A DNA stretch of 60,926 nucleotides, counting the filler. It is 4 parts of 4 records of this genome, joined end to end, with 100 filler letters (N's around TTAATTAATTAA, not from the genome) between each part and the next. Parts side by side here need not be neighbours in the genome. Positions count along the whole stretch, not along the records: positions 1 to 29,813 come from SRR20825010_2184; 3 more parts are not named here. One strand, 5' to 3'. Under the pieces are notes generated by a model that saw nothing but the letters and a program-made list of their open reading frames with translations, made no database searches and had not been told where the DNA came from. The position numbers and the translations under genes were made by a program. Each line of letters begins with the position of its first letter. Position 1 is the stretch's first letter. This document shows, piece after piece, positions 2,744 to 17,546 of the stretch.

Positions 2744-4471
2744 CTATCTCTGTCCCCGCACCACTCCTCCCGGCAGGGCGCCCGTCGCCTCGCCGCCCCG
2801 GTATGTCACCTTGCCGGAGACAATGGTGGCGTCGTAGCCGGTCGATTTCTGCATCAGCCGCTTGCCGTTCGCGGGCAGGTCATAGGTGACGTAGGGATCG
2901 GAGAAGCCGACCTTGTCCCAGTCGATGATGTTCACATCGGCCTTCTTGCCGGGCGCCAGCACACCACGGTCGGACAGACCGGCGGCGCTGGCGGTGTCAG
3001 AGGTCAGGCGGCGGATCACGTCCGTCATCGGGAAGCGGGCCCGGTCGCGGCCCCAGTAGCTCATCAGCCAGGTCGGGTAGCCGGCATCGAGGATGAAGCC
3101 GACATGGGCACCGCCGTCCCCCAGCCCCATGATCGCGTTCTTGTCCGCCAGCATCTCTTCCGGCGCGCTCATGTCGTAATTCGCGTAGTTCACCAGCGGC
3201 GTGTAGATGAAGCCGCGTCCTTCCCGCTCCAGCAGGATGTCGTAGGCGACTTCGGGCGCCGTCCGGCCTTCCCGCTCGGCGAGCGCCTCAATCGAGTCAC
3301 TCTTTGCAGGCTCGTAATTCGCGGGCGAGCCGAGCCGGAACATCTTGGAGAAGGAGATCCGGTGGATCAGCGGGAAGGTGCTGTTCTTCACCGGGTCCTC
3401 GGCGAGGATCTTCCGGCGCACCTCCGGATCGCGCATCGCCGCGACCCGCTGGTCGAGCGGCAGATCGCCGATGGAGCGATATGTGGCCGTGCCGGAGAAC
3501 GGGTTCTGACTGCCTTCGAGGCCGAGCAGGATACCGATCGGGCGCGGCGCCACCACCGGCCGGATCGACAGGCCATCGTTCGCCGCCTCGCCCGCCAGCC
3601 GCAGCAGGTCACGCCAGAAATCCGGCCGGTTATGGCGCTGGTTCAGGGTAAAGACAGCCGTCCGGCCGCTATTCTCGACGATGCGGCGGAGCATGGCGAA
3701 CTCGGTTTCCGGGTCCGGCTCGTCCCAGTCAGAGACGATTTCGAGGAAGCCTGCCCCGGCATCCTGCATGCCGCGCGCGATGCCGGTCAGCTCTTCCTCC
3801 TGGGCGCGCAGGGTCGGTGTGTAGTCACCGGCGAGGCTCTTGTGGCTGATCGTGCGCGAGGTGGAGAACCCGAAGGCGCCGGCGCGCACGGCATCCGCCG
3901 AAATCTTGCGCATCCGGGCGATGTCTTCCGGCGTCGCGTGTTCCAGCTGGATCGCCCGTTCGCCCATGACATAGACCCGGACGGCGGCATGGGGCAGCAG
4001 CACGCCGAGATCCATGTCGCGCGGCAGTTTCTCCAGCACGTCGAGATACTCCGCAAAGCTCTCCCACTGCCAGTTCAGTCCTTCATGCAGGACCGGGCCG
4101 GGAATGTCCTCCACCCCCTCCATCAGCTCGACCAGCTTCTCCCGGTCTTCCGGCTTGCAGGGCGCGAAGCCGACACCGCAATTGCCCATGATCGCCGTGG
4201 TGACGCCGTGCCAGGCCGAAGGCGCCATGTGGCTGTCCCAGACCGCCTGTCCGTCATAGTGGGTGTGAATGTCAACGAACCCGGGCGTGACCAGCATGCC
4301 GCGCGCGTCGATCTCCTCGACGGCGGTCTGCGCCCCAAAATCGCCGATCCCGACGATCTTGTCCCCGGCCAGCGCCAGATCCGCCTCGACCGGCTCCGCC
4401 CCGGTGCCGTCGACGATGGTGCCGTTGCGGATGATCAGTGTGGGCTCAGCAGACTTTGGCTCAGCAGACAT
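2744..4471 (-). CDS. N-acyl-D-amino-acid deacylase family amidohydrolase
   Basis: PGFVDIHTHYD, GVTTAIMGNCG, DGGAH, RGVLAPGKKAD. Confidence 0.88.
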   Translation of the reverse strand: MSAEPKSAEPTLIIRNGTIVDGTGAEPVEADLALAGDKIVGIGDFGAQTAVEEIDARGMLVTPGFVDIHTHYDGQAVWDSHMAPSAWHGVTTAIMGNCGVGFAPCKPEDREKLVELMEGVEDIPGPVLHEGLNWQWESFAEYLDVLEKLPRDMDLGVLLPHAAVRVYVMGERAIQLEHATPEDIARMRKISADAVRAGAFGFSTSRTISHKSLAGDYTPTLRAQEEELTGIARGMQDAGAGFLEIVSDWDEPDPETEFAMLRRIVENSGRTAVFTLNQRHNRPDFWRDLLRLAGEAANDGLSIRPVVAPRPIGILLGLEGSQNPFSGTATYRSIGDLPLDQRVAAMRDPEVRRKILAEDPVKNSTFPLIHRISFSKMFRLGSPANYEPAKSDSIEALAEREGRTAPEVAYDILLEREGRGFIYTPLVNYANYDMSAPEEMLADKNAIMGLGDGGAHVGFILDAGYPTWLMSYWGRDRARFPMTDVIRRLTSDTASAAGLSDRGVLAPGKKADVNIIDWDKVGFSDPYVTYDLPANGKRLMQKSTGYDATIVSGKVTYRGGEATGALPGGVVRGQR

Positions 4472-4698
4472 GGCGAATCCTCCCGATGTTTATTCTCTTT
4501 TTCCGGGAGTGTGAGCCTGCGGACAGGCCCCGTAAAGCCGCAGGCGGGCACAAGTGTGGTGACGATTTGCCGGAACACCCGGCACTCTCCGCGACGCTCG
4601 CCAGCCGTGCTGCCAAAATACCATCAATCGGCGCGGCCCGGCTTTGCTAGCCTCCTGGCAAAACACGAAGCACTAATATCGCGAGGGGAAACGCGGCA

Positions 4699-5667
4699 AT
4701 GGACAGCTCAAGCAAGATCGCCCTGATCGGCGCCGGACTGATGGGACACGGGCTTGCCCTCGTGCATGCAATCGCCGGGCATCCGGTGAAGATGACCGAT
4801 ATCAGCGAAAGCCAGCTCAAGATCGGCATGGACCTCGCCGCCAGCGCGCTGGAGACCATGGTCTCGGCAGGCAGCATCGCCCGCGACGACGTGGCCCCGA
4901 TCCTCGCCCGGATCACACCTGTTAAAACGCTCGCCGAAGCAGTTTCAGACGCGGATTTCATTATCGAGGCGGTGGTCGAGAACCGGGATGTGAAGCGCAC
5001 GGTCTATGCCGAGATCGAGGCAGCGGCCCCGGCGCAAGCGCTGATCGCCAGCAACACCTCCTACCTCGATGTCTTCCCGCTGGTTCCGGCGGGACTGCAG
5101 AGCCGTTTCATCATCACCCACTGGTACACCCCGCCCTACATCATCGACCTGGTCGATATCGCCGGTGGGCCGGAGACCGATCCGGCGCACCTCACCACGA
5201 TGCGGGACCATTACCGCGCCATCGGCAAGAAGCCGGTGCTGTTCGACCGCTTCACGCCGGGCTATGTCGCCAACCGGCTGCAGGCGGCGATGACGCTGGA
5301 AATCACCCGGATGCTGGACGAGGGCTGGGCGACGCCAGAGGCCATCGACGACAGCATCAAATACGGCCTCGCCCTGCGCATGGCGACCATGGGCGCGCTG
5401 ATGAAGGCGGACTTCACCGGCCTCGACATGACCCGCCGCTCGCTCTCCAACAAGATGTACACGCCGCCCGAAGTGAAGGGTTACAGCGAGACGCTGGAGG
5501 GGCTGATCGCGGACGGCAAGATGGGCGTGATGAGCGGGTCCGGCTATTTCGACTATGGCGACATGAAGCCGGACGAGCTGTTCCGGAACCGTGATATCGG
5601 GCTGCTGAAGCTGAAAGCGGCGGTGGAGACGGTGGAAAAAGAAACACCGCTGTCGCCGAAGGGGTGA
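4699..5667 (+). CDS. 3-hydroxyacyl-CoA dehydrogenase family protein
   Basis: GAGLMG Rossmann motif, EAVVEN, ASNTS, PGYVANRLQ. Confidence 0.88.
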   Translation: MDSSSKIALIGAGLMGHGLALVHAIAGHPVKMTDISESQLKIGMDLAASALETMVSAGSIARDDVAPILARITPVKTLAEAVSDADFIIEAVVENRDVKRTVYAEIEAAAPAQALIASNTSYLDVFPLVPAGLQSRFIITHWYTPPYIIDLVDIAGGPETDPAHLTTMRDHYRAIGKKPVLFDRFTPGYVANRLQAAMTLEITRMLDEGWATPEAIDDSIKYGLALRMATMGALMKADFTGLDMTRRSLSNKMYTPPEVKGYSETLEGLIADGKMGVMSGSGYFDYGDMKPDELFRNRDIGLLKLKAAVETVEKETPLSPKG

Positions 5668-7271
5668 TCAGCATGGATGCGATGGAAACGGACTATGTCG
5701 TGGTCGGCGCAGGCTCCGCCGGCTGTGTCGTGGCGAGCCGCCTGAGCGAGAGCGGGGCAAAGGTCCTGCTGCTGGAGGCTGGGCCCGCGGACCACAATCC
5801 CCTGATCCATATTCCGGCTGGCGTGAAGAGCCTGCTCTATAACGCGAACGTCAACTGGAACTATGCGAGCGAGCCGGAAGAGAGCACGGCGGGACGGGCT
5901 ATTCACTGGCCGCGCGGACGCGTTCTCGGCGGCTCGCACTCGATCAACGGGATGCTCTATGTGCGCGGCAACCCGGCCGACTATGACGGCTGGGCGCAGC
6001 TCGGCTGCCGGGGCTGGAGCTTCAGCGACGTCTTGCCCCTGTTTCGCCGGTCCGAGCGCTACGACAAAGGCGAGGAGGGCATCCGGGGACGCAGCGGCCC
6101 GATGCCCGTCGAGGATTACCGGACCATTCTGCCACTGACCCACGCCTTCGTGCGCGCGGCCCAGGAGGCCGGTTTTACCCTGAACCCCGATTACAACGGC
6201 TCACGGCAGGACGGGGTCGCCTATTCGCAGATGACGCGGCGCGGGCGCTGGCGCGCCTCGACCGCACGCACCTTCCTGGCCGAAGCGCGCAAGCGCCCCA
6301 ATCTGCGGATCGAGACGGAGGCGCTGGTGCAAAAGCTGACCTTCGAAGGGCGCCGCTGCACCGGGCTGGTGTTTCGCCGCCATGGCGAGGATGTCCGCGT
6401 CCGCGCCACCCGCGAGGTGATCCTGTGCGGCGGAGCCGTCAATTCACCGCAAATCCTGCAGCTCTCGGGGATCGGCCCGGCCGGGCATGTCGCGGGCCTC
6501 GGACTGCCGGTGGTGCAGGACCTGCCCGGCGTGGGCGCCAACCTGTCCGATCACTACGTCACGCGCATCACGCACCGCGTGCGGGACGCGATCTCGCTGA
6601 ACGAGCTGTCGCGGGGCTGGCGGGTGCTGCGCGAGATCGGCCGCTTTGCGCTTTTCGGCAACGGCGCGCTGACCTTCGGCGTGACCAGCGCGATGGTGTT
6701 CTGCCACAGCCGCGAGGGCCTGGAGAGTCCGGACCTTCAGCTCCTGTTTACGCCGGCCAGCTACGATCCGGACAAGCCTCTGGCCCTGGAGCGCGCGCCT
6801 GGAATGGCGACGGTGATCTGTCCGACGCGCCCCTCCAGCCGCGGCACGGTGATGGCCGCCAGCCCGGATCCGTCGGCACCGCCGCGCATCAAGCCGAACT
6901 ATCTGTCGGATCGCGACGATCTGCGGGTGATGCTGTCCGGCATGGAGCATGTGCGCCGGATCTTCGCCGCGCCGTCCCTCGCGTGCCACAGCGCGTCGGA
7001 ACTCTGGCCAGGACCGGCTGCAGCGGACGAGGCCGCGCTCGCGCAATTCGCCCGGGAACGCGGCACCACGCTCTATCATCCGGTCGGCACCTGCAAGATG
7101 GGGATCGATCCTATGGCGGTCGTTGACCCTGAACTCAAAGTCCGGGGCGTCGAGGGGCTCAGGGTCGCCGACGCCTCGGTGATGCCCTATCTGACAACCG
7201 GCAACACCAACGCCCCGACCATCATGATCGCCGAGAAGGCGGCCGATCTGATCCGGGCGGAAAGCGCGTAA
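5664..7271 (+). CDS. GMC oxidoreductase (choline dehydrogenase-like)
   Basis: GAGSAG, RGRVLGGSHSING, YHPVGTCKMG, GNTNAPTIMIAEK. Confidence 0.92.
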   Translation: MISMDAMETDYVVVGAGSAGCVVASRLSESGAKVLLLEAGPADHNPLIHIPAGVKSLLYNANVNWNYASEPEESTAGRAIHWPRGRVLGGSHSINGMLYVRGNPADYDGWAQLGCRGWSFSDVLPLFRRSERYDKGEEGIRGRSGPMPVEDYRTILPLTHAFVRAAQEAGFTLNPDYNGSRQDGVAYSQMTRRGRWRASTARTFLAEARKRPNLRIETEALVQKLTFEGRRCTGLVFRRHGEDVRVRATREVILCGGAVNSPQILQLSGIGPAGHVAGLGLPVVQDLPGVGANLSDHYVTRITHRVRDAISLNELSRGWRVLREIGRFALFGNGALTFGVTSAMVFCHSREGLESPDLQLLFTPASYDPDKPLALERAPGMATVICPTRPSSRGTVMAASPDPSAPPRIKPNYLSDRDDLRVMLSGMEHVRRIFAAPSLACHSASELWPGPAAADEAALAQFARERGTTLYHPVGTCKMGIDPMAVVDPELKVRGVEGLRVADASVMPYLTTGNTNAPTIMIAEKAADLIRAESA

Positions 7272-7294
7272 TCGTCGCGCACCCGAACCTCACT

Positions 7295-7672
7295 CTAAGT
7301 GCCGTCGATATAGACCCAGTCTGCGCCCTCGCGGCGGAAGCGGCTGGTTTCGCGCACGCGGCCGGTGTGGGTGCCGTTCCGCCATGTCGCGGTAAAGCGA
7401 ACCGTCGCTGTGTCGGGGCCGGTCACCTCAACACGGTCAATCACGAGCCCGGTCCAGACCTGCGCCGGGTCCAGATCCAGGATCAAGGGCCGCGTCTCCG
7501 CTGCCCAGCTTTTCTGCAGGTAGGCCGCATTTCCCCGGCTGAAGGCGCAATAGCGGGAGCGCATCAGCTCCTCCGCGTCACGCGCCGGCGCCCCTGAATG
7601 CAACCGGCCGCAGCAGCCCAGATAGCTCTTCCCGCTGCCGCACTCACATGGCTCAAACAAATCGCTCTCCAA
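7295..7672 (-). CDS. ychJ: YchJ family protein with SEC-C motif
   Basis: CECGSGKSYLGCC, AEELMRSRYCAF, ETSRFRRE..WVYIDG. Confidence 0.85.
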   Translation of the reverse strand: MESDLFEPCECGSGKSYLGCCGRLHSGAPARDAEELMRSRYCAFSRGNAAYLQKSWAAETRPLILDLDPAQVWTGLVIDRVEVTGPDTATVRFTATWRNGTHTGRVRETSRFRREGADWVYIDGT

Positions 7673-7687
7673 TCAGGTCGCGCCCCA

Positions 7688-8044
7688 TCAACGCGCGCCG
7701 CGCTCGTCGAGATAGATCCGCACGGCATTCTGAACATGCCGGAAACGGTCGCCGCCCAGATGCTTGCCGCCGAACCAGCGTGTCACCACGATGATATGGT
7801 CGCGCAGCCCTTCCCGCTCCAGCATCCGCAGGATCACCAGTCCCGCCCCCGCCTCGCCATCATCGTTTTTCAACGCCGTATCGGCGGTCAGCAGGGCCCA
7901 TGTATTGTGGGTGGCCTTGGCGAATTTCTTTTTGGCGCACAGCGTCTTGATAAAACCCTTGGCCTCTTCTTCGGACGCGCACGGCCCGCCCGAGACCGCA
8001 TATTTCGATCCGCGGTCGCTGATGATGTTCTCGAGAATACGCAT
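7688..8044 (-). CDS. YigZ/IMPACT family protein (N-terminal domain only)
   Basis: DRGSKY, KATHNTWA, DDGEAGAG, VVTRWFGGKHLGGDRFR. Confidence 0.88.
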   Translation of the reverse strand: MRILENIISDRGSKYAVSGGPCASEEEAKGFIKTLCAKKKFAKATHNTWALLTADTALKNDDGEAGAGLVILRMLEREGLRDHIIVVTRWFGGKHLGGDRFRHVQNAVRIYLDERGAR

Positions 8045-8152
8045 AGCGCAGGCTTAGAGCGATCCAATGCCGGCAGCAAGGGGGCTGCGGCGTACCGGCC
8101 GGCATTTTGGTATCCCTCATGAAAGCGCAGCACGGAGAGCAAACGCCTCGCT

Positions 8153-9493
8153 TCAGGGCTGCGTGCTGTTGGTGTCCTGTAAATCGGAAAGAATTTTGCG
8201 GTCAAACCCGGAAAGGGGCTGGCTGCGGCTTGCGCTCAGTACCTGCTCCCGGAAGTCAGCAAGCACAAGACGCGCGGGAAGCGGAAAAGACGCTTCCAAC
8301 CCGGCAAGGGTTTCCGAAAGCCGGCTGACGACATCCGCGTCGGTGATCCCGTATCGGGCAATCCCTGCGAAGGCCCGGCAGGCCACATCCTCCAGAACGA
8401 CAGTTTCGGTTACGAGACGCAACCGGCCATCCCGGTCCAGCCGCATCGCCGAAGGGATGCCCCGCCCTCCTACCCGGCCAAGGACTTCTCCCAGTCTGTC
8501 AATGCAGTAGAGAGCGGTTGTCGGGTCATTGAAGCCGGGCGACAGGGAGCGCTGGGCCAGTTCCACGATGCGGTGGATGGCAAACTCGAGATCCTGGTAG
8601 GGCGTCCGGTCCCGGCCGATGACGACCGCACCGCGGAGGCCTTCTTCGATCTTGTCCGAGACCCGATCCTGCGGATAGGCGGTGATCACGCACGCACCTT
8701 TGGTGACAAACCGGCCGGACGGCGCATCGATCCGCAGAACAAGATCATGCTCCGTGGCAATCCGCATCAACGCGTCAAAGCCGGTATTCTGGACATATCC
8801 GCTGACGTCGGCCGCGATCTGCCTGCTGCCATCATCGAAACCGCCGGGCATTTGCTGCGCGGCCCGTTCGTCCGCCTCATTCCCCGGCCCCTGCTCGGGC
8901 CGTTCGTCAAACAGGCGATCAACAGCGCAACAGCCTTCGTAAGCAAGTTTCGCCAGCAGGGTTTCGATCCGGATCGAGGTTGCGATGTGATGAATGAAAT
9001 AGATCAGGACAGCGACACTGGCCGCGGCCAGCACAATCCCGAACCCGACCGCCAGATGCGGGACGAAGCTGGACTCTTCCATACCCCGCACCGACCGCAG
9101 CACGAACAGGCAATACAGAAAGGTCGCGATGAACGTGCCCAACACGATCTGGTTGCTGCGATCGCGCATGAAGTTGTCCAGAACCCGCGGCCCGAACTGC
9201 GAGGAGGCAAGCTGCAACGACAACATCGTGATTGAAAAGATCAGGCTCGCCACCGTGATCATCGAGGTTGCAATCACCGACAGAATCGACCGCGCGCCCT
9301 CGGGCCCGAACGTATAAAACGCACTCGCCTCGTCCGTCCGGTCCACGGCGCGCAGGGTATCGACCTCGATGAGCAGAAACGAAAGCGCCACAGCCACGAG
9401 GACCATGAGAGCGGGCACGAACCAGAAGCTGGAATTCAGACGGTCCCAGAACGCGAAGACGCGGGTGATCGAAAATGTGGCAGCCATGACCAA
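8153..9493 (-). CDS. DUF2254-family membrane protein
   Basis: SFWFVPALM, LQLASSQFGPR, LGTFIATFLY, RSLSPGFNDPTTA. Confidence 0.85.
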   Translation of the reverse strand: MVMAATFSITRVFAFWDRLNSSFWFVPALMVLVAVALSFLLIEVDTLRAVDRTDEASAFYTFGPEGARSILSVIATSMITVASLIFSITMLSLQLASSQFGPRVLDNFMRDRSNQIVLGTFIATFLYCLFVLRSVRGMEESSFVPHLAVGFGIVLAAASVAVLIYFIHHIATSIRIETLLAKLAYEGCCAVDRLFDERPEQGPGNEADERAAQQMPGGFDDGSRQIAADVSGYVQNTGFDALMRIATEHDLVLRIDAPSGRFVTKGACVITAYPQDRVSDKIEEGLRGAVVIGRDRTPYQDLEFAIHRIVELAQRSLSPGFNDPTTALYCIDRLGEVLGRVGGRGIPSAMRLDRDGRLRLVTETVVLEDVACRAFAGIARYGITDADVVSRLSETLAGLEASFPLPARLVLADFREQVLSASRSQPLSGFDRKILSDLQDTNSTQP

Positions 9494-9750
9494 CTCTTTT
9501 CCTGTTGCGAGCTGGGTCGCAAGCTCGCCGAACTGACGGCGAAGCCGCTTTCCTTCACAATGAAGGGGTTCATCCAGGGCCGCGCGGCATGAGCCTCAAT
9601 CCTAGTGCGATGTCGCCCACCGCACCACCCGCTTGATTACGGCAGGCGGGCGTAGTGCCTGAAGGATCTGGGTGACTGGAACGACGGCATATGCCGCAGC
9701 CAGCAGCACGGATTTCTCTGCGGTCTCAGGGAGGGAAAGCGCCAGCGCCT

Positions 9751-9861
9751 TACCGGCCCGACGGCAAGAAACCGGTGCTGTTCGAGCGCGTCACGCCCAG
9801 CTATGTCGCCAAACGGCTGCAGGCGGTGGAGGAAGAGACGCCGCTCAAGCCGGAGGGGCGA
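9751..9861 (+). pseudogene. Internally deleted remnant copy of the 3-hydroxyacyl-CoA dehydrogenase gene at 4699-5667
   Basis: YRPDGKKPVLFERVTPSYVAKRLQA matches YRAIGKKPVLFDRFTPGYVANRLQA (5212-5287), fused to VEEETPLKPEG matching VEKETPLSPKG* (5632-5667); TGA changed to CGA. Confidence 0.85.
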
Positions 9862-9894
9862 GCAGAGCGAGAGCTGACGATGTGATGCTTACTG

Positions 9895-10557
9895 TTAGTC
9901 TTCTCGGCGCAACGTAATCGATCCCGCAGTGTTAAGGCCTTTCCGCCATGATCTGTCAGTCCAGTAATGCCCCGAAAGCGCGGTCGGTGGCCCTTCCCCA
10001 CCCAAGCTGATTTCCAAGACAGCCGCACCTCGATGCACCCTCTCGTCGCCGTCTCCATGTTCAGGTGTTTGTTGCTCATAAATATATGAGATCTCGGCAA
10101 CATGCCGCTCTGGGTCCTTTTTCAAGCTGACAATCCGAGACGAAGATTTCCCGATATCAGAGACAAGCCGCACAGAAATCCGCAAGAAGCCTTGGTCAAT
10201 GCGAACTTTGACCGGGACAACGTGACTCCCTGAGCCATATTCTCCAATAGGGCCCGGTCGCTCTGCCTCCGGATTCCAGTTCGACCTAATTTCTCCATAC
10301 CAGTCACCATTAACATCGGGGAAGACTCGTTGATTCAAGCTGGGAAACAAGCACCAGAGCATTCGCCAACGCTTTGTGAGAAGGAGGGTTACGAAACTCA
10401 TCACCATGAAAGTTCCGCTGAAAGTGCGTAGAACCCCCACCACCGTCCAAGGCTCTGTTAAAACATGGCTATGGATGAGGATCACCAAGAGGATTGATGA
10501 AGCGCCCGACCACCCGAATATGGTCATCCATGATTTCAAGCCGAGGAGCTGCCACAT
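9895..10557 (-). CDS. cap15: CBASS Cap15-like effector (2 TM helices + beta-barrel, S-2TM-beta)
   Basis: Two N-terminal hydrophobic helices, then FPDVNGDWYG..SYIYE..HRGAAVL..LSGHYWTDR..TAGSITLRR; ATG at 10557 preferred to avoid overlap with the cyclase. Confidence 0.75.
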   Translation of the reverse strand: MWQLLGLKSWMTIFGWSGASSILLVILIHSHVLTEPWTVVGVLRTFSGTFMVMSFVTLLLTKRWRMLWCLFPSLNQRVFPDVNGDWYGEIRSNWNPEAERPGPIGEYGSGSHVVPVKVRIDQGFLRISVRLVSDIGKSSSRIVSLKKDPERHVAEISYIYEQQTPEHGDGDERVHRGAAVLEISLGGEGPPTALSGHYWTDRSWRKGLNTAGSITLRRED

Positions 10558-10566
10558 AACTACATC

Positions 10567-11907
10567 TTGAGGTTTACAGCTAACAAGATTCATGCATATA
10601 GTAATTCTCTCAACAATGGTACCGGAATTGCCGTGGCTTTCGCAACGTCCCATGACCTTGACACGAAGGTTGGAACTCCCCTTCTGAACCTGCATCCACT
10701 GTTCTTCGGGAACCGTCATCGTGGAGGTTTACTCTCTGCGCTTAACATCACCCCTAAACAAGATCAGGAACTGCGTCGTGCGCGGACGGAAATCCGGCAG
10801 GAGCTAAGAATAGCGGCAAGGTCCCCTGAAAGCTTTGGACTGGACCAATCTGAAGTGTTCAGAGGGTACGGAATCCTAGCCCGTCTGGACTTTAGCGAGA
10901 AAACTTTCCGACCCAGGTTCCTGACGCAGGGCAGCTACGTTTACAAGACGCTGAACAGCCCGTGTTGGGCGGCACAGGCAATTGATCTCGACGACGGTGT
11001 CTATTTTCCGATGAGCTTCCTTGATGTGGGGCAACCGGCACTTATGTCGAGCGCTCTTTTTAAGCTTGTCGAGAATGCCTTGGAGTCTTTGTGTCGTCGC
11101 AATAGTTGGACAATGACACGCAAAACGACGTGCGTTCGGATCCATCTTGACCCTGAAAGAACTGCGCACATTGATCTGCCGATTTATGCGATACCTGACC
11201 AAGAGTTCGAGCGCCTCGAAAAATCAGCTCAAACCGCCTTCGCTTCTGGCCACACAAATTTTAGAGAAGCGATGAATTATATTGGTCCAGAAATGAGGAT
11301 CGATCCCAATAGGGTAATGCTTGCACATCGTGAGGTCGGCTGGATTCCGTCTGATCCGCAAAAAATGAATGACTGGGTAAAGATCCAGATAGAGACTCAC
11401 GGAGAGAGTTTACGGCGGGCGTGGCGCTATCTTAAAGCGTGGCGAGACTTTCATTGGAATGACTCGAGCCTAGCATCAATCCACTTGATGGTCGCTGTGG
11501 CAAAAATTTTCGACGAACACAATGAGCAGTCGAACGACCGACCGCGCGATGATATTGACCTATATTTTTTAGCGACCCTGTTGCCGAATGTCCTGACATA
11601 CGCAGTCGAGAACCCAGTGGACAGAAGTCAACCATTCAGGTGCAGCGATCAGGATCATCTGATTGATCTAAAACAGCGCATGCATAGGCTTAGCGCGAAA
11701 TTATACAGCGCAGTCTATGAGACAGCACACAAGCAATTAGCTATCCAGACCATCGTAGATCAGTTTGGGGACAGAGTTCCTAACGACGAACTAATGGTAT
11801 CCAGCAATTTGGGTACACCAGCTGTCGTGTCGGATCGTGGACAAATACGGACAGCGATTGCGGCATCAGTTCCTATTGAAACTGTCAGAAAGACGCACGC
11901 CGGATAA
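10567..11907 (+). CDS. CD-NTase (cGAS/DncV-like nucleotidyltransferase); true start probably GTG ~10633 or CTG 10684
   Basis: PRFLTQGSYVYKTLN..IDLDDGVYFPMS, HIDLPIY, WIPSDP, RYLKAWRD; C-terminus ..KTHAG. Confidence 0.92.
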   Translation: MRFTANKIHAYSNSLNNGTGIAVAFATSHDLDTKVGTPLLNLHPLFFGNRHRGGLLSALNITPKQDQELRRARTEIRQELRIAARSPESFGLDQSEVFRGYGILARLDFSEKTFRPRFLTQGSYVYKTLNSPCWAAQAIDLDDGVYFPMSFLDVGQPALMSSALFKLVENALESLCRRNSWTMTRKTTCVRIHLDPERTAHIDLPIYAIPDQEFERLEKSAQTAFASGHTNFREAMNYIGPEMRIDPNRVMLAHREVGWIPSDPQKMNDWVKIQIETHGESLRRAWRYLKAWRDFHWNDSSLASIHLMVAVAKIFDEHNEQSNDRPRDDIDLYFLATLLPNVLTYAVENPVDRSQPFRCSDQDHLIDLKQRMHRLSAKLYSAVYETAHKQLAIQTIVDQFGDRVPNDELMVSSNLGTPAVVSDRGQIRTAIAASVPIETVRKTHAG

Positions 11908-11915
11908 AACGCGCT

Positions 11916-13613
11916 ATGATGATGCTGGCGGATAAGGAAACACTAGCAATTCGACATATCCACGCCACGTTGAAAGCGCGTGGCTACAAGCGTAAGACAG
12001 ACGAGACCGTTCATGCGTGGGTCGGAAGCGAGAAAATTCTAGGCAAAACCGTAGACCTTGCAATAATAGTAACTGACCCACTCTTTGCCGATCTTCCAAT
12101 AATCGTCCTAATAAACCCGACAACAGAGATCCGCGCTCATGTATTGAGCAGCGGCTCCATATGTTATGCTGCAGATGCCTCTCTTGTTCTTGACCCCGAT
12201 AATCCAGGTGGATCTGTCTTACGATGCATTGAACAAGCGAAAGAAACGTTAGAACTAGCAGATAATATTTCGTCAAACGCAGAGATTCGAGCCGAGTTTG
12301 GCGCTTATTGGGCTGGTCGAACAGTATTTATAGAGTTTGAATCTAAAAAAAATTCAGCCACTCACTATATTGTAGATTGTAATAATGGAAAAACTGTATC
12401 TCTGATATCTTCGGACATCTCTACAGCTCATTTCCTTGCAAGTCGTCATAAATCTGTGGTGCAGCAGTTAGGAAAAGTATCAATACTCCATATGGATCAA
12501 GACCTAGATGTCGGCGGAGTATCGTTCCCCCCGCAAAATTTACAGGAATTGACGGATTGGATCCATGCAGCTGCCCCAAACTACTTGAATACATTGCAGA
12601 ATCTATTGCTCCCAGATGCAGGACCAAAGGAAACGTATATTGTCGCTCGAAATATAACTCTAGGCGTCCTAGTAGAGTTACCTAATGATATCAAGCAAAG
12701 TAGAAAAAAAGGATTCCGTAATGACTTTTGGAAACGTGCAACTAAAAAAAGGCCGGGTGACTTCAAAATTCAACGTTATACGGGACTCCGAGTTGACGAG
12801 GAATACCGCTTCACACGAAATCTGGATGACTCTGATCAAGAACGTAGCCCGCCTCGATCGCTAGAAAATAAAAAAATTGCCTTGATAGGAATTGGGTCCA
12901 TCGGTGGTTATTTGGCTCAAGCATTGACACGCTCTGGAGCCGGAGCAGGAAAAAGCGGGGAGTTGGCATTATTCGACCCCGACGTACTTTTCCCCGCGAA
13001 TCTCGGACGTCATTTGCTATCTTTTGAAGACCTTGCACGCCCTAAAGCCGAGCAAGTCGCGAACCGGCTCTCTGTTGAGGCTCCAAGACTGAATGTAATT
13101 TCTCACGTAATAAATGCACTGACACGAATTGACAGCCTCCGGCATTTCGACCTGGTTATTGATGCGACAGGCGAAGAGCGTGTCAGCCTTGCCCTGAATT
13201 CGTACAAGCAGAATCGCCGAAGTTCGGACAAGCCGCTCCCGCCGATCCTTCATTGCTGGCTTATAGGTAACGGAGCATCATCCCAAACCTTTTTTAATGG
13301 CATGGATAGCAAGGCTTGCTTTCGTTGCTTAAGACCAGACTTGGCCAAGCAAGCGCGCTACTGGCCACTGAAAGACGGAGCGGAGCAAATCTTAAAACTG
13401 CCGCAAGACGGATGCGGAGGAGCGTTTGTCGCCTATTCTGTTTCTGCTCCCATGATCGCCGCAGGTCTGGCATTGGAAGCTGTTCTCGATTGGGCCAGAG
13501 GCTCACCGCACCCCGCCTTACGAACACTCAACATCGACCCGACGCGCACCCAGCCCAAGAAGCATGTTAGCCCTGAACGACATCCGAATTGCCCCGCATG
13601 TAAAGGGCTTTAG
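11916..13613 (+). CDS. cap2: CBASS Cap2-like E2-E1 (ThiF) fusion
   Basis: E2-like AHVLSSGSICY; E1 IGIGSIGG, FDPD..NLGRH, IDATG, CFRC/CPAC zinc pairs, GCGG; 8 nt downstream of the CD-NTase. Confidence 0.88.
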   Translation: MMMLADKETLAIRHIHATLKARGYKRKTDETVHAWVGSEKILGKTVDLAIIVTDPLFADLPIIVLINPTTEIRAHVLSSGSICYAADASLVLDPDNPGGSVLRCIEQAKETLELADNISSNAEIRAEFGAYWAGRTVFIEFESKKNSATHYIVDCNNGKTVSLISSDISTAHFLASRHKSVVQQLGKVSILHMDQDLDVGGVSFPPQNLQELTDWIHAAAPNYLNTLQNLLLPDAGPKETYIVARNITLGVLVELPNDIKQSRKKGFRNDFWKRATKKRPGDFKIQRYTGLRVDEEYRFTRNLDDSDQERSPPRSLENKKIALIGIGSIGGYLAQALTRSGAGAGKSGELALFDPDVLFPANLGRHLLSFEDLARPKAEQVANRLSVEAPRLNVISHVINALTRIDSLRHFDLVIDATGEERVSLALNSYKQNRRSSDKPLPPILHCWLIGNGASSQTFFNGMDSKACFRCLRPDLAKQARYWPLKDGAEQILKLPQDGCGGAFVAYSVSAPMIAAGLALEAVLDWARGSPHPALRTLNIDPTRTQPKKHVSPERHPNCPACKGL

Positions 13614-13788
13614 CCTGCCTCGAACGCCCACCGGCAACTCTTAATTCAATCGCAGCAGGCTTCCATTACCCCCCATCCTCGGCCACCACACCCAACCTCA
13701 ATCCAAACACACCCCCGCTGCGGAATGCGCTACCCTCTGCCTAAACTGACCAGCCCGTTCCAATAGCGTCCCGGAGAGAGAGCCCTCC

Positions 13789-15111
13789 ATGCACCCCATA
13801 ATCCTCTTCACCGGCTATCTCCTCATCACGATCACCCCACTGCTCCTCGGCGCGCTCCAGAACCTTCCCCCGCGCCCCCTGCTGGATGAGATCGCCTCCG
13901 GGCTTGGCATGACGGCGTTTGCCATTTTGCTGGTGGAGTTCGTGCTGTCGGGGCGGTTCCGGGCGATTTCGGGGCGGATCGGGATGGATGTGACCATGCG
14001 GTTTCACCAGCTCGTGGCGCGCACGGCGCTGATATTCGTGCTTGTTCACCCCTATCTCTACAGCGCGGAGTTTCTTGGCACGCCGCTGCCGTGGGACCCG
14101 ACGGGGCAATTCACGCTCGGCCTCGATGCCGGCTCGCTGATCACCGGGCTGATCGCCTGGGTGGCGTTGCCGTGCTTCGTGCTGATGTCGATTTTCCGGG
14201 ACCAGTTGCCGTATCGCTACGAGGTCTGGCGGGCGATGCATGCCGTGGGTGCGGTGGTGATCGCGGCGGCGGTGACGCATCACGCGCTTGAGGCGGGGCG
14301 GTACAGTGCCGATCCGTTGCTCGCCGGGTTCTGGCTTGTGCTGCTTGCCCTCGCCCTTGCCTCGCTGGTCTGGACCTATGCGATCGCGCCGCTCGGGGAA
14401 GCGCGCCGGCCCTACGAGGTCACCTCGGTCAGGAAGATCGCGCTCAGGACATGGGAGCTTGCCCTGCGGCCCCGGCGCGGGGACGCACTCGCCTTCGAGG
14501 CGGGGCAGTTCGCCTGGCTCAAGCTGGGGCACAGCCCGTTCTCATTGCAGGAAAACCCATTCTCGATCAGCTCGGCCCCGGCCGACCGCCCCGATGTCCG
14601 CTTCGTCATCAAGGAAGCCGGGGATTCCACCCGGCATATCGGAGACGTTGCGCCGGGCACCGTCGCGTATCTCGGCAATGCGCATGGCAATCTCACGCTC
14701 AAGGGACGCACGGGAACGGGCATCGCGCTGATCGCCGGCGGGGTCGGCATCGCGCCGCTGCTCTCCATCGCGCGGCAGCTGCGCGCCGAAGATGACCCGC
14801 GCCCGATGATTCTGCTCTACGGCAACCGCACCGAAGAGCAGATCGTCTACGCGGAGGAGCTGGAAGCGCTTTCCGGGCGCCCGAACACAGAGGTCATCCA
14901 CGTCCTCGCGGAGCCCGCGCCGGGCTGGGCCGGACGGGTCGGGCTGATCGACCGGGAGACCATCGGGCAGGTCTTCACAGCGGAAGACGCGTGCGACTGG
15001 CTCTATATCCTGTGCGGGCCGCCGGCCATGCTGGAGAGCGTCGAAGACGCCCTGCTGGCGCACGGGGTTCCGGCGAAGCAGATTATCGCCGAGCAGTTCT
15101 ATTATGATTAG
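13789..15111 (+). CDS. Ferric reductase-like transmembrane domain + FAD/NAD-binding (FNR-like) oxidoreductase
   Basis: TM helices with His pairs, ENPFSISS, IAGGVGIAP, LYGNR, LCGPP, C-terminal EQF. Confidence 0.88.
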   Translation: MHPIILFTGYLLITITPLLLGALQNLPPRPLLDEIASGLGMTAFAILLVEFVLSGRFRAISGRIGMDVTMRFHQLVARTALIFVLVHPYLYSAEFLGTPLPWDPTGQFTLGLDAGSLITGLIAWVALPCFVLMSIFRDQLPYRYEVWRAMHAVGAVVIAAAVTHHALEAGRYSADPLLAGFWLVLLALALASLVWTYAIAPLGEARRPYEVTSVRKIALRTWELALRPRRGDALAFEAGQFAWLKLGHSPFSLQENPFSISSAPADRPDVRFVIKEAGDSTRHIGDVAPGTVAYLGNAHGNLTLKGRTGTGIALIAGGVGIAPLLSIARQLRAEDDPRPMILLYGNRTEEQIVYAEELEALSGRPNTEVIHVLAEPAPGWAGRVGLIDRETIGQVFTAEDACDWLYILCGPPAMLESVEDALLAHGVPAKQIIAEQFYYD

Positions 15112-15123
15112 GGGGCTGGGCTC

Positions 15124-15210
15124 ATGAAGTTGCGACACAGAATCCAGGCCGGTGTCTGGGGGACCAGCGCCCTGATCCTCCTCGCCGTTCTGGTCTTCGC
15201 ACTGCGGTAG
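15124..15210 (+). CDS. Putative 28-aa single-pass membrane peptide
   Basis: MKLRHRIQAGVWGTSALILLAVLVFALR*; G-rich leader; 12 nt after the reductase stop; followed by a hairpin. Confidence 0.45.
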   Translation: MKLRHRIQAGVWGTSALILLAVLVFALR

Positions 15211-15212
15211 GG

Positions 15213-15243
15213 TCCGGCCCGCCGCAAATCACAACGGGCCGGA
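15213..15243. terminator. Hairpin between convergent genes
   Basis: TCCGGCCCG..CGGGCCGGA 9-bp inverted repeat. Confidence 0.45.
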
Positions 15244-15258
15244 GGATATGGGCCGGCC

Positions 15259-16140
15259 TCACGCCACCTCGTGATTGCCGAGCATTTCCAGCGCCTTCAC
15301 CATCGCAGAATGGTCCCACGCGCTGCCGCCATGCGCCGCGCAGGCGTTGAAGAGTTCCTGCGCCGTCGCCGTGTTCGGCAGGCTGATGCCCATTTCACGG
15401 GCGTTGGAGAGGGCGAGGTTCAGGTCCTTCTGGTGCAGCTCGATCCGGAAGCCCGGGTCGAAGGTGCGCTTCACCATGCGGTCGCCATGCAGCTCCAGGA
15501 TCTTCGACGAGGCGAAGCCGCCCATCAGGGCCTCGCGCACCTTGGCCGGGTCGGCGCCCGCCTTGGAGGCGAACAGCAGGGCCTCGCCGACCGCTTCGAT
15601 GGTCAGCGCGACGATGATCTGGTTGGAGACCTTGCAGGTCTGCCCGTCGCCATTGCCGCCGACCAAAGTGATGTTGCCGCCCATCAGCTCGAACAGAGGC
15701 TTCACTCTTGCGAACGCCTCTTCGGAGCCGCCGCACATGATGGTCAGGCTTGCCGCCTTGGCGCCGACCTCGCCGCCCGATACCGGCGCATCGATATAGT
15801 CGCAGCCGAGCGCGTTGATCCTGGCCGCGAACTCCTTCGTCGCCAGCGGCGAGATGGAGCTCATGTCGACGACGGTCTTGCCCTTGGTCAGCGCACCAGC
15901 GATGCCGTTCTCGCTGAACAGCACTTCCTCCACCTGCGGCGTGTCCGGCACCATGATGAAGATGGTGTCAGCCTCGGCAGTCACGTCCGCCGCCGTGACG
16001 CAGGCCTTGCCGCCGGCATCGATCAGCTCTTTCGGCACCTGGCCAAGCGTGTTCAGGAACACCTCGTGCCCCGCCGCGATCAGGTGTCCCGCCATCGGGG
16101 TGCCCATGATGCCAAGTCCGACAAATCCAAGTTTAGCCAT
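15259..16140 (-). CDS. glxR: 2-hydroxy-3-oxopropionate (tartronate semialdehyde) reductase
   Basis: GFVGLGIMG, DAPVSGGEVGAKAASLTIM, GDGQTCKV, GFRIELHQKDL. Confidence 0.9.
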   Translation of the reverse strand: MAKLGFVGLGIMGTPMAGHLIAAGHEVFLNTLGQVPKELIDAGGKACVTAADVTAEADTIFIMVPDTPQVEEVLFSENGIAGALTKGKTVVDMSSISPLATKEFAARINALGCDYIDAPVSGGEVGAKAASLTIMCGGSEEAFARVKPLFELMGGNITLVGGNGDGQTCKVSNQIIVALTIEAVGEALLFASKAGADPAKVREALMGGFASSKILELHGDRMVKRTFDPGFRIELHQKDLNLALSNAREMGISLPNTATAQELFNACAAHGGSAWDHSAMVKALEMLGNHEVA

Positions 16141-16230
16141 CTGTTCGTCTCCATCCTTTGACTATATGCCGCGCAATTTTCCGCGCTTTTCTCCGGTGTT
16201 GCGCCGGAGCCTATCAAAAACCGGCAGCGC

Positions 16231-17241
16231 TTAACCAGCCATGCCGAATTCCTTCGCCAGCAGCTCATAACTCCGCCGCCGCACGCCCTCGTCATGGGCC
16301 CAGGTCACCACCGCGATTTCCTCGATACCAAGCCGCGTGGCCAGCGCGCGAATGCGTTCTGCCACAATGTCCGGCGTGCCGACCATGGCAACCTGGCGGA
16401 GCTGTTCCATCCGGGCGATCTCGCTTTCCGAATAGGCGGCATTTACCGCCGTCTCCGCGCTTTCCAGCGCCGTATAACGGCCCCGGTCGCGATAGAGCTG
16501 CCAGCGGGCGCGGGAGGCGAAATGATAGTGCGCCTCTTCTTCGGTTTCCGCCGCCAGTGCCCAGACGCAGATGCCGGGGCAGGGTTCCGGGAAGCGCTCG
16601 CTCGGCTGATAGCGGTCGCGATAGATCTGGATCGCTTCCGGGCCGCCCTGCCCTTCGGTGAAGAACCAGGCAAAGCTGTAGGGCAGGCCGAAATGCGCCG
16701 CCACCTGGGCGCCGTAAAGCGAGCTGCCGAGCATCCAGATCTCGGGCGACGTGTCGCCCTGCGGGTTGGCCTGGACGGCAGCGAACGGGTGGCCTTCCGG
16801 CAAGGGCTGACCGCTGACCCAGGCCGCCAGATCCTGCACGTCGTTCGGAAACTCGGCCGGACGTTCGGCGGCGGCGGGGTTGAGGGCAAGCGAGGTCCGT
16901 CCGTCGGTTCCCGGCGCCCGGCCAAGGCCGAGATCGATCCGGCCCGGCGCAAAGGCTTCCAGCACGCGGAACTGCTCGGCCACCTTCAGCGGCGCATAGT
17001 GCGGCAGCATCACGCCTGCGGAGCCAAGCCGGATGCGGTTTGTCCGCATGGCGATCCCGGCCAGCAGGATTTCCGGCGCGGTGCCGACAATAGTCGGGTG
17101 GGAATGATGCTCCGACACCCAGAAGCGCTTGTAGCCAAGGCTCTCGCACAGCTCGGCCATGGCGACGGTATCGCGGATGGTCTGGCCGTGCGACTTGCCG
17201 ACGCCGGCAACGGACTGGTCGAGTACGGAAAGATGCAGCAA
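16231..17241 (-). CDS. LLM-class (luciferase-like) flavin-dependent oxidoreductase
   Basis: LSVLDQS, FWVSEHH, GSAGVMLPHY, RIDLGLGRAPG; TTG start after AAGGAG. Confidence 0.88.
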   Translation of the reverse strand: MLHLSVLDQSVAGVGKSHGQTIRDTVAMAELCESLGYKRFWVSEHHSHPTIVGTAPEILLAGIAMRTNRIRLGSAGVMLPHYAPLKVAEQFRVLEAFAPGRIDLGLGRAPGTDGRTSLALNPAAAERPAEFPNDVQDLAAWVSGQPLPEGHPFAAVQANPQGDTSPEIWMLGSSLYGAQVAAHFGLPYSFAWFFTEGQGGPEAIQIYRDRYQPSERFPEPCPGICVWALAAETEEEAHYHFASRARWQLYRDRGRYTALESAETAVNAAYSESEIARMEQLRQVAMVGTPDIVAERIRALATRLGIEEIAVVTWAHDEGVRRRSYELLAKEFGMAG

Positions 17242-17546
17242 GGGCAGGCTCCTTCTGGCGAGAGCTTCGGAAAATGCGGAGGGCAAGCATAGAGGGTTTA
17301 GCGCCGGCTCTCCTTGCCGATCCGCCACGAGACTGTTCCCGCCCGCAACCTTGCCGCATCCGCGCCGCGTCACCAACCCGTGCCGCACACCCTTGCCGCA
17401 GGGCGGAAATCCGGCGGAAACCCGGCGCATTCCGCTGGCGCCCGCGATCCACTATCCCTAGTCTTGCATCGCTCTTCTTCCCGGCAGCCGCGCGCCGGGT
17501 ATACTCCCCCTCTGGTCACTTCAGGCAAGGCTCCCGCCCGCAGATA

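Follow-up and report, generated by a model that had tools for sequence, protein, structure and literature searches.

A three-gene CBASS locus in a low-GC insert

We analysed a 60,926-nucleotide stretch of DNA (hereafter the window), filler included, in which parts of four records are joined and positions 1-29,813 come from SRR20825010_2184. At 9895-13613, an open reading frame (ORF) scan found three intact genes of a predicted antiphage signalling system based on cyclic oligonucleotides (CBASS): an effector on the minus strand and, on the plus strand, a nucleotidyltransferase of cGAS/DncV-like type (CD-NTase) and Cap2, an E2-E1 fusion. They lie in a 4.1-kb low-GC insert with chromosomal genes on both sides. 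With a GC content of 0.40-0.53 in the genes versus 0.60-0.69 in the flanks, this is indeed the lower-GC three-gene island that an earlier sequence-only reading of this DNA had described. Its components are:

9895..10557, minus strand: Cap15-type effector, 220 aa (Pfam, PADLOC, AlphaFold2, Foldseek)
10558..10632: divergent intergenic region, 75 bp, GC 0.373
10573..10602, plus strand: candidate sigma-70-like promoter for cyclase-cap2, TTTACA-18 nt-TATAGT, 10 of 12 consensus matches
10633..11907, plus strand: CD-NTase, DncV-like cyclic GMP-AMP (cGAMP) synthase, 424 aa (Pfam, PADLOC, NCBIfam, structure alignment)
11916..13613, plus strand: Cap2, E2-E1 fusion, 565 aa (Prok-E2_B at residues 17-133, ThiF at 315-561)

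The cyclase comprises the Pfam domains DncV-like_NTFase and DncV_C and scores 293.7 bits against the NCBIfam equivalog 'CBASS cGAMP synthase' (NF041078; cut-off 150). Its GS, DLD and third Asp are in register with VC0179-like/DncV structures (best E 6.6e-45) and its C-terminus reads ...KTHAG, so that both family models and structure alignment uphold the previously noted CD-NTase with a GS..DxD..D active site and a terminal Gly. The predicted product is most likely 3'3'-cGAMP, and we take the protein to belong to CD-NTase clade A. Although its frame is open back to TTG 10567, translation most likely starts at GTG 10633, because the cyclase of a related locus (L121, described below) starts M-AFSAS..., in exact register with GTG(10633)-AFATS... 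of the window.

Cap2 matches the PADLOC E1-E2 model at 1.1e-132. Across 20 homologues, H75, C83 (in SICY), C468 and C471 are invariant and C500 (in DGCGG), C559 and C562 nearly so. The E2 Cys83, His75, the adenylation motif, the E1 Cys500 and both CxxC pairs are thus all conserved, and the E2-E1 fusion with candidate catalytic cysteines in SICY and DGCGG and two CxxC pairs, as first read from the letters, holds among its relatives. Every component of the locus matches defence-system models in the PADLOC and profile searches.

The candidate promoter facing the cyclase is the best of five sigma-70-like sites in 9500-13900 (4.4 kb), where shuffled sequence gave a mean of 3.8. Its -10 element aligns with TATTAT in L121, where the equivalent intergenic region spans 79 bp, and with TACTAT in another related locus, L123. 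A consensus scan of the 75-bp intergenic region found no sigma-70-like site facing the effector. Of the short bidirectional promoter proposed earlier, the half towards the cyclase therefore has a candidate site and the half towards the effector has none.

The effector is a distant member of the Cap15 family

The effector matches Pfam Cap15_CD_rec (PF18153) with 47.4 bits (cut-off 31.2) and 16 PADLOC '2TM effector' models, the best at 3.6e-35. The open frame on the minus strand spans 9895-10719, and we placed the start at 10557 because full-length PADLOC models align from residue 55 of this longer ORF. The resulting N-terminus, MWQLLG, agrees with MYQ(L/V)(I/L)G in relatives, which were gathered solely from loci reached via Cap2. 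A word-based search of 5.8 billion proteins with the effector returned no homologue at E<=1e-5.

An AlphaFold2 model built from a 30-row alignment (A4) has a mean predicted local distance difference test score of 87.5 and predicts helices at 7-32 and 39-62 followed by eight strands. Its top three Foldseek matches in the Protein Data Bank are Cap15 of Yersinia aleksiciae (7N34/7N35), with target-normalised template modelling scores of 0.76-0.81, a probability of 1.00 and 15-17% identity over the barrel. In the model, both hallmarks of the family, two N-terminal transmembrane helices and a C-terminal beta-barrel receptor domain, are present. By family profile and predicted fold, the effector is thus a true Cap15-family member that is far from the others in sequence. 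The two-helix, beta-barrel gene that had been seen head-to-head with the cyclase on the opposite strand is confirmed by Pfam, PADLOC and fold alike, and the 9895-10557 protein matches Cap15 both by sequence and by fold; the label 'divergent Cap15-like' was apt as to sequence and too cautious as to family.

Cap3 is absent from the window and from few related loci

The sequence-only reading listed no Cap3. The search for this JAB/JAMM isopeptidase used a profile (A2) whose eight source ORFs lie downstream of Cap2 and were assigned to Prok-JAB by Pfam (8 of 10 tested). The profile matches 30 of 31 related genome loci, and in a six-frame translation of the whole 61-kb window it gave no match at E<=10, which bears out the absence. 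Moreover, the unassigned DNA of the insert amounts to 290 + 132 bp and is too short to hold Cap3 (~155 aa).

Related loci were collected with a Cap2 alignment (A1); with the Cap2 protein alone as query, the genome scan yielded no confirmed relative. The survey comprises 111 loci, namely 31 genome loci among the matches listed and the best 80 of 130 metagenome loci confirmed in the Cap2-alignment scan, all annotated with profiles of effector, cyclase, Cap2 and Cap3. Of the 111, 106 have Cap3, downstream of Cap2 in 104 and upstream in two (L002 and L080). In these two (L002 4423-5013 and L080 279-851), Cap3 has moved and converges on the divergent effector; the genes there run cap3(+) eff(-) cyc(+) cap2(+).

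No Cap3 was seen in the remaining five loci, L005, L050, L055, L068 and L110. L110 has only 630 bp before its contig ends and is scored neither as having nor as lacking Cap3. At L050, whose layout is that of the window, a low-GC insert of three genes lies between flanks of 70% GC and, as in the window, ends at the Cap2 stop. At L055 (5986-7521, 7636-8873), an IS3-type element truncates Cap2 at residue 511 and Cap3 is gone. Cyclases of Cap3-less loci with a visible C-terminus end in Gly (7 of 8) or Ala (1 of 8), the residues that are conserved at the CD-NTase C-terminus of Cap2 systems according to Jenson et al. (PMC10097602). Every Cap2 from a Cap3-less locus retains His75, the adenylation motif, the cysteines of E2 and E1 and the first CxxC pair; the second pair is missing from the truncated L055 alone. 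Pfam and PADLOC annotation of their neighbourhoods revealed no additional gene that is conserved among the Cap3-less loci.

A deeply diverged sister system also lacks Cap3

The closest Cap2 in the protein database, P0001, is 53% identical to that of the window; the next is at 35%. The genome encoding it (G462) was reached via relatives of G136, a close relative of the window organism, and gave a Cap2 match of 54% identity and 648 bits. Its locus, L121, translates exactly to P0001, which NCBI names as Thalassobaculum sp., and holds:

6547-7239, minus strand: L121 effector
7319-8596, plus strand: L121 cyclase, ending in AG
8602-10278, plus strand: L121 cap2

No Cap3 was found in 18 kb at L121. 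The A2 profile also found none in the whole of G462, or in the whole of G098, whose locus L123 has the same three-gene layout as the window; the control genomes G001, G003 and G411 matched at 1e-56 to 1e-61. A Cap3 profile search of the protein database is suggestive in the same direction: among the 80 matches listed, none comes from the contig with P0001. With Pfam Prok-JAB, one weak ORF of ~240 aa was found in each of G462, G098 and G136, far from any CBASS; that of G462 scores 25 bits and lies 4.6 Mb from the CBASS, and G136, which has no CBASS, carries one alike. By eye, the ORFs downstream of L121 cap2 resembled a ClpP-type protease, and the idea of a substitute protease was dropped because neither Pfam nor PADLOC matches them.

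The three proteins of the window and those of L121 align collinearly from end to end, with identities of 43% (effector), 54% (cyclase) and 53% (Cap2), dN of 0.41-0.57 and saturated dS. Despite this deep divergence, all three frames are open in both. Because nucleotide similarity is limited to the inside of the cyclase and cap2 genes, the genomic contexts differ; L121 has PIN/HTH and ParDE-like genes as neighbours. The surroundings of L123 are a defence-island context: a PD-T7-3-like gene (4315-5613; PADLOC 1.3e-20) lies on the effector's strand, ~550 bp past the effector stop.

An IQ-TREE analysis (LG+G4) of 31 Cap2 rows, covering the window's own neighbourhood, joined the window and L121 as sisters with support of 100/100. 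L123 and L050 sit on long branches of their own along a backbone without resolution, and L055 groups as sister with L036, which has Cap3. A tree constrained to unite the window, L121, L123 and L050 in one clade was 17.9 log-likelihood units worse, with an approximately unbiased (AU) test p-value of 0.137. As this test does not reject the single clade, the data are compatible with as few as one old loss and as many as three losses among these four. On these alignments, the lack of Cap3 is not a one-off, and in the window and G462 it looks inherited rather than accidental.

Divergent effectors are common among related loci

The sequence-only reading took a co-directional operon to be the norm and the inverted effector to be the atypical feature. 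Of the 111 surveyed loci, 33 show a Cap15-like effector. It lies on the strand opposite to cyclase-Cap2 in 23 of these 33, directly upstream of the cyclase in 14, further upstream in 5 and downstream of Cap3 in 4; in the other 10 it is on the same strand. In a FastTree of 112 Cap2 rows, the window belongs to a group of 22 rows (support 92), and all 13 members with visible upstream DNA have effector and cyclase head-to-head. The same layout occurs with another effector: among 68 plasmid records with a Cap2 match, the two that were inspected, Aminobacter aminovorans pAA02 and a plasmid of Mesorhizobium sp. 131-3-5, carry CapV(-), DncV(+), Cap2(+) and Cap3(+). This comparison supports neither assumption for this effector type, and the inversion, conserved in homologous loci, is no isolated decay event. 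A divergent effector is a common arrangement that has gone unremarked; a literature search on divergently transcribed CBASS effectors found nothing relevant. In alphaproteobacterial type II CBASS, transcription of the effector away from the cyclase is frequent, which amends the usual picture.

Two further features of these loci came to light. At L006, a 510-aa protein downstream of Cap3 (5317-6846) carries, close to its N-terminus, a barrel like that of Cap15 (profile score 75.8) and is a longer effector architecture. The type II loci L058, L060, L083, L087 and L105 contain a second CD-NTase-like gene, mostly on the opposite strand just past Cap3 (for example, L060 6972-8399, minus strand).

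The island sits at a cargo hot spot and recurs in a second strain

The genome of G136, whose DUF2254 protein is 88% identical to that of the window, is collinear with the window at 5284-9604 (93% nucleotide identity) and at 13724-17357 (88%). Between these blocks it has an unrelated 1.1 kb in place of the 4.1 kb of the window. Since G136 carries different cargo at the same site, the position between the DUF2254 membrane-protein gene and a ferric-reductase-like gene is, as judged from this alignment, a cargo hot spot. The G136 cargo is a single low-GC ORF of 296 aa (L118 11772-12662) with no Pfam or PADLOC match, and may be a new defence gene. No integrase or tRNA gene was found near the insert in a search that did not cover transposases. 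The edges of the insert are:

9605..9894: left edge, GC-rich, 290 bp; synteny with G136 stops at 9604
9691-9885: ORF of 64 aa beside the effector stop, apparent deleted remnant, paralogue of host gene 4699-5667
13614..13745: right edge, 132 bp with no gene; host synteny is back at ~13724-13745

The peptide of ORF 9691-9885 joins two stretches that lie apart in the 4699-5667 protein, an internal deletion having fused them. It has no Pfam match, and 9750-9826 is 87% identical to 5211-5287. By these similarities the ORF is a recombination scar at the insert edge. The host gene itself (4699-5667) is 3-hydroxyacyl-CoA-dehydrogenase-like. On the right, the insert terminates directly at the Cap2 stop codon, and 13614..13745 has no similarity to any related locus compared.

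Five sequencing runs from three studies carry 99-100% of the insert's sampled words. Over 8800-14600, run X1 is identical to the window and may be its source. In run X5, one 115-kb contig spans the same interval with 17 substitutions and one inserted base: 15 substitutions and the insertion fall in the left host flank (8979-9560) and two substitutions in the insert. The junctions are as in the window and there is no Cap3. The Cap3-less island is thus present at the same site in a slightly different genome.

A further run, X6, which we guess to be RNA, has contigs only on the island (10249-10614, 10608-10987, 12048-12313, 12413-13030 and 13297-13459). In two of them a 21-letter non-genomic leader, presumably the end of a template-switching oligo, is joined at 10608, which lies 6 nt beyond the -10 hexamer predicted above, and at 13297, inside cap2 just after a T run. 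Both junctions may be RNA 5' ends; contigs as such cannot establish an RNA start.

A proposed model for CBASS without deconjugation

On balance, the window probably holds a horizontally acquired three-gene type II-like CBASS module from a small lineage without the Cap3 deconjugase. In the mechanism that we propose, cyclase and Cap2 would be co-transcribed from the 75-bp divergent intergenic region. Cap2 would adenylate the C-terminal Gly of the cyclase and pass the cyclase via its E1 and E2 cysteines to a target, leaving the cyclase primed; in published work, Cap2 forms a thioester with the cyclase's C-terminal Gly, conjugates the cyclase and raises cGAMP output (Jenson et al., PMC10097602). 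Without Cap3, this conjugation would stay unreversed. Upon phage infection, the DncV-like cyclase would produce a cyclic dinucleotide, most likely 3'3'-cGAMP, that would bind the Cap15-type membrane protein, itself transcribed separately, at its beta-barrel. The effector could then oligomerise and break the inner membrane, aborting infection, in keeping with the ligand-induced oligomerisation and membrane disruption ascribed to Cap15 in a review (PMC10419184).

Published accounts differ on what the loss of Cap3 should do. Cap3 cleaves cyclase conjugates, and whether it is required depends on the phage (Jenson et al., PMC10097602); in the V. cholerae CBASS it is dispensable for T2 resistance, and its over-expression abolishes defence. 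A cyclase of B. cereus is proposed to be inactive while conjugated to PspA and to be released on infection (Kruger et al., PMC11153139). By the Jenson and V. cholerae accounts, a system without Cap3 should work permanently primed, and the Kruger account predicts non-function. The persistence seen here would favour a working, permanently primed system in this lineage.

Several observations weigh against a functional module without Cap3. The retention of Cap3 in 106 of 111 loci speaks for strong selection to keep it, and the need for Cap3 against some phages, as reported by Jenson et al., points the same way; under the Kruger model, the system would be locked off. L068 and L005 are tree tips and L055 is damaged, a pattern of sporadic decay. 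The window has a deletion scar at its left edge, two independent losses in the window and G462 are formally possible, and for the window's organism the Cap3 search covers 61 kb, so Cap3 may lie elsewhere in its genome. Much of this would suit a decaying remnant, in which a four-gene type II CBASS lost Cap3 at the island edge and the rest is inactive or fading: nearly all relatives have the gene, the insert finishes immediately at the stop codon of Cap2, with a scrap of a deleted gene at its other side, and L055 exemplifies how an insertion sequence can bring about such a loss. Against a remnant stand three full-length ORFs with intact catalytic residues and terminal Gly, an island that is nearly unchanged in X5, and a sister that is likewise Cap3-less after saturated synonymous divergence and in another genomic context, and we regard it as unlikely.

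Rather less likely still is a complete system whose Cap3, or another isopeptidase, is supplied in trans from elsewhere in the genome. The extent of the search in the window's organism leaves room for this, and Cap3 can sit apart from Cap2, as its upstream position in L002 and L080 illustrates. However, nothing like Cap3 turned up in the window or in the whole of G462 or G098, where the controls were positive, and the sole JAB-like ORF there is weak and recurs in the CBASS-free G136. The first role recognised for DncV, which a review mentions (PMC10419184), was a physiological one in V. cholerae, and the locus, whose defence role is predicted, could in principle be a cGAMP circuit for host physiology, with the membrane protein as a regulated channel rather than an antiphage effector. 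Yet every component matches defence-system models in PADLOC, the genes are low-GC cargo in a variable hot spot where a close relative has different cargo, and relatives adjoin toxin-antitoxin genes and PD-T7-3, which makes such a circuit highly improbable.

Beyond the module itself, we tentatively propose a stable CBASS lineage that combines a full Cap2 E1-E2 and a terminal Gly with the lack of a deconjugase and would comprise the window and G462, perhaps also G098 and L050. If such a lineage exists, priming of the cyclase by conjugation would run one way in it and self-killing would be curbed elsewhere, for example by separate and probably weak transcription of the effector. Deconjugation would then not be intrinsic to Cap2-type CBASS, which would argue against Cap3 release as the activating step. 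Cap2 and Cap3 are regarded in the literature as obligatory partners, and the role of Cap3 is disputed: in PMC10097602, the Ledvina et al. preprint and PMC11153139 it appears as an antagonist of priming, as needed against some phages or as the releaser of an inactive conjugate. Our literature search for natural Cap2 systems without Cap3 found only experimental deletion, and supplementary operon tables may list natural cases. A natural Cap3-less module that is intact through deep divergence and moves as a three-gene unit is a ready-made test case for whether the module defends, whether its cyclase is permanently conjugated and what limits its toxicity. The apparently inherited absence of Cap3 is the uncommon, new part of this system, and the divergent effector is ordinary for its clade.

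Comparison with known CBASS types

Among the features that define type II CBASS, the window has the CD-NTase active site, the fused E2-E1 Cap2, the terminal Gly/Ala and an adjacent effector, and the Cap3 JAB/JAMM isopeptidase has no match in it. Like the type II systems of V. cholerae and E. coli TW11681 (CapV-DncV-Cap2-Cap3), it pairs a DncV-like synthase ending in Gly with a full E2-E1 Cap2 that has both catalytic cysteines. In contrast to them, it has no Cap3, its effector is of the Cap15 type instead of CapV, and this effector is on the opposite strand. Type II (short), or E2-only, CBASS also has no JAB isopeptidase, according to the Ledvina et al. preprint, and resembles the window in this respect; its E2, however, comes without an E1, whereas the window Cap2 has a ThiF/E1 domain at 315-561 with Cys500.

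The plasmid systems of pAA02 and Mesorhizobium likewise have an effector divergent from DncV-Cap2, with an intergenic region of ~125 bp, but differ in their CapV phospholipase effector and in having Cap3 downstream of Cap2. For the effector, Yersinia aleksiciae Cap15 (7N34/7N35) shares with the window protein two N-terminal transmembrane helices and the barrel. In the review cited above (PMC10419184), Cap15 is described as two transmembrane helices with a beta-barrel that senses uracil-containing dinucleotides, whereas the partner of the window effector is a DncV-like purine dinucleotide cyclase. The system most like the window is that of G462 (L121), which shares all three genes and their divergent arrangement, likewise lacks Cap3 and has a cyclase that ends in AG, and differs in its protein sequences (43-54% identity) and its neighbourhood.

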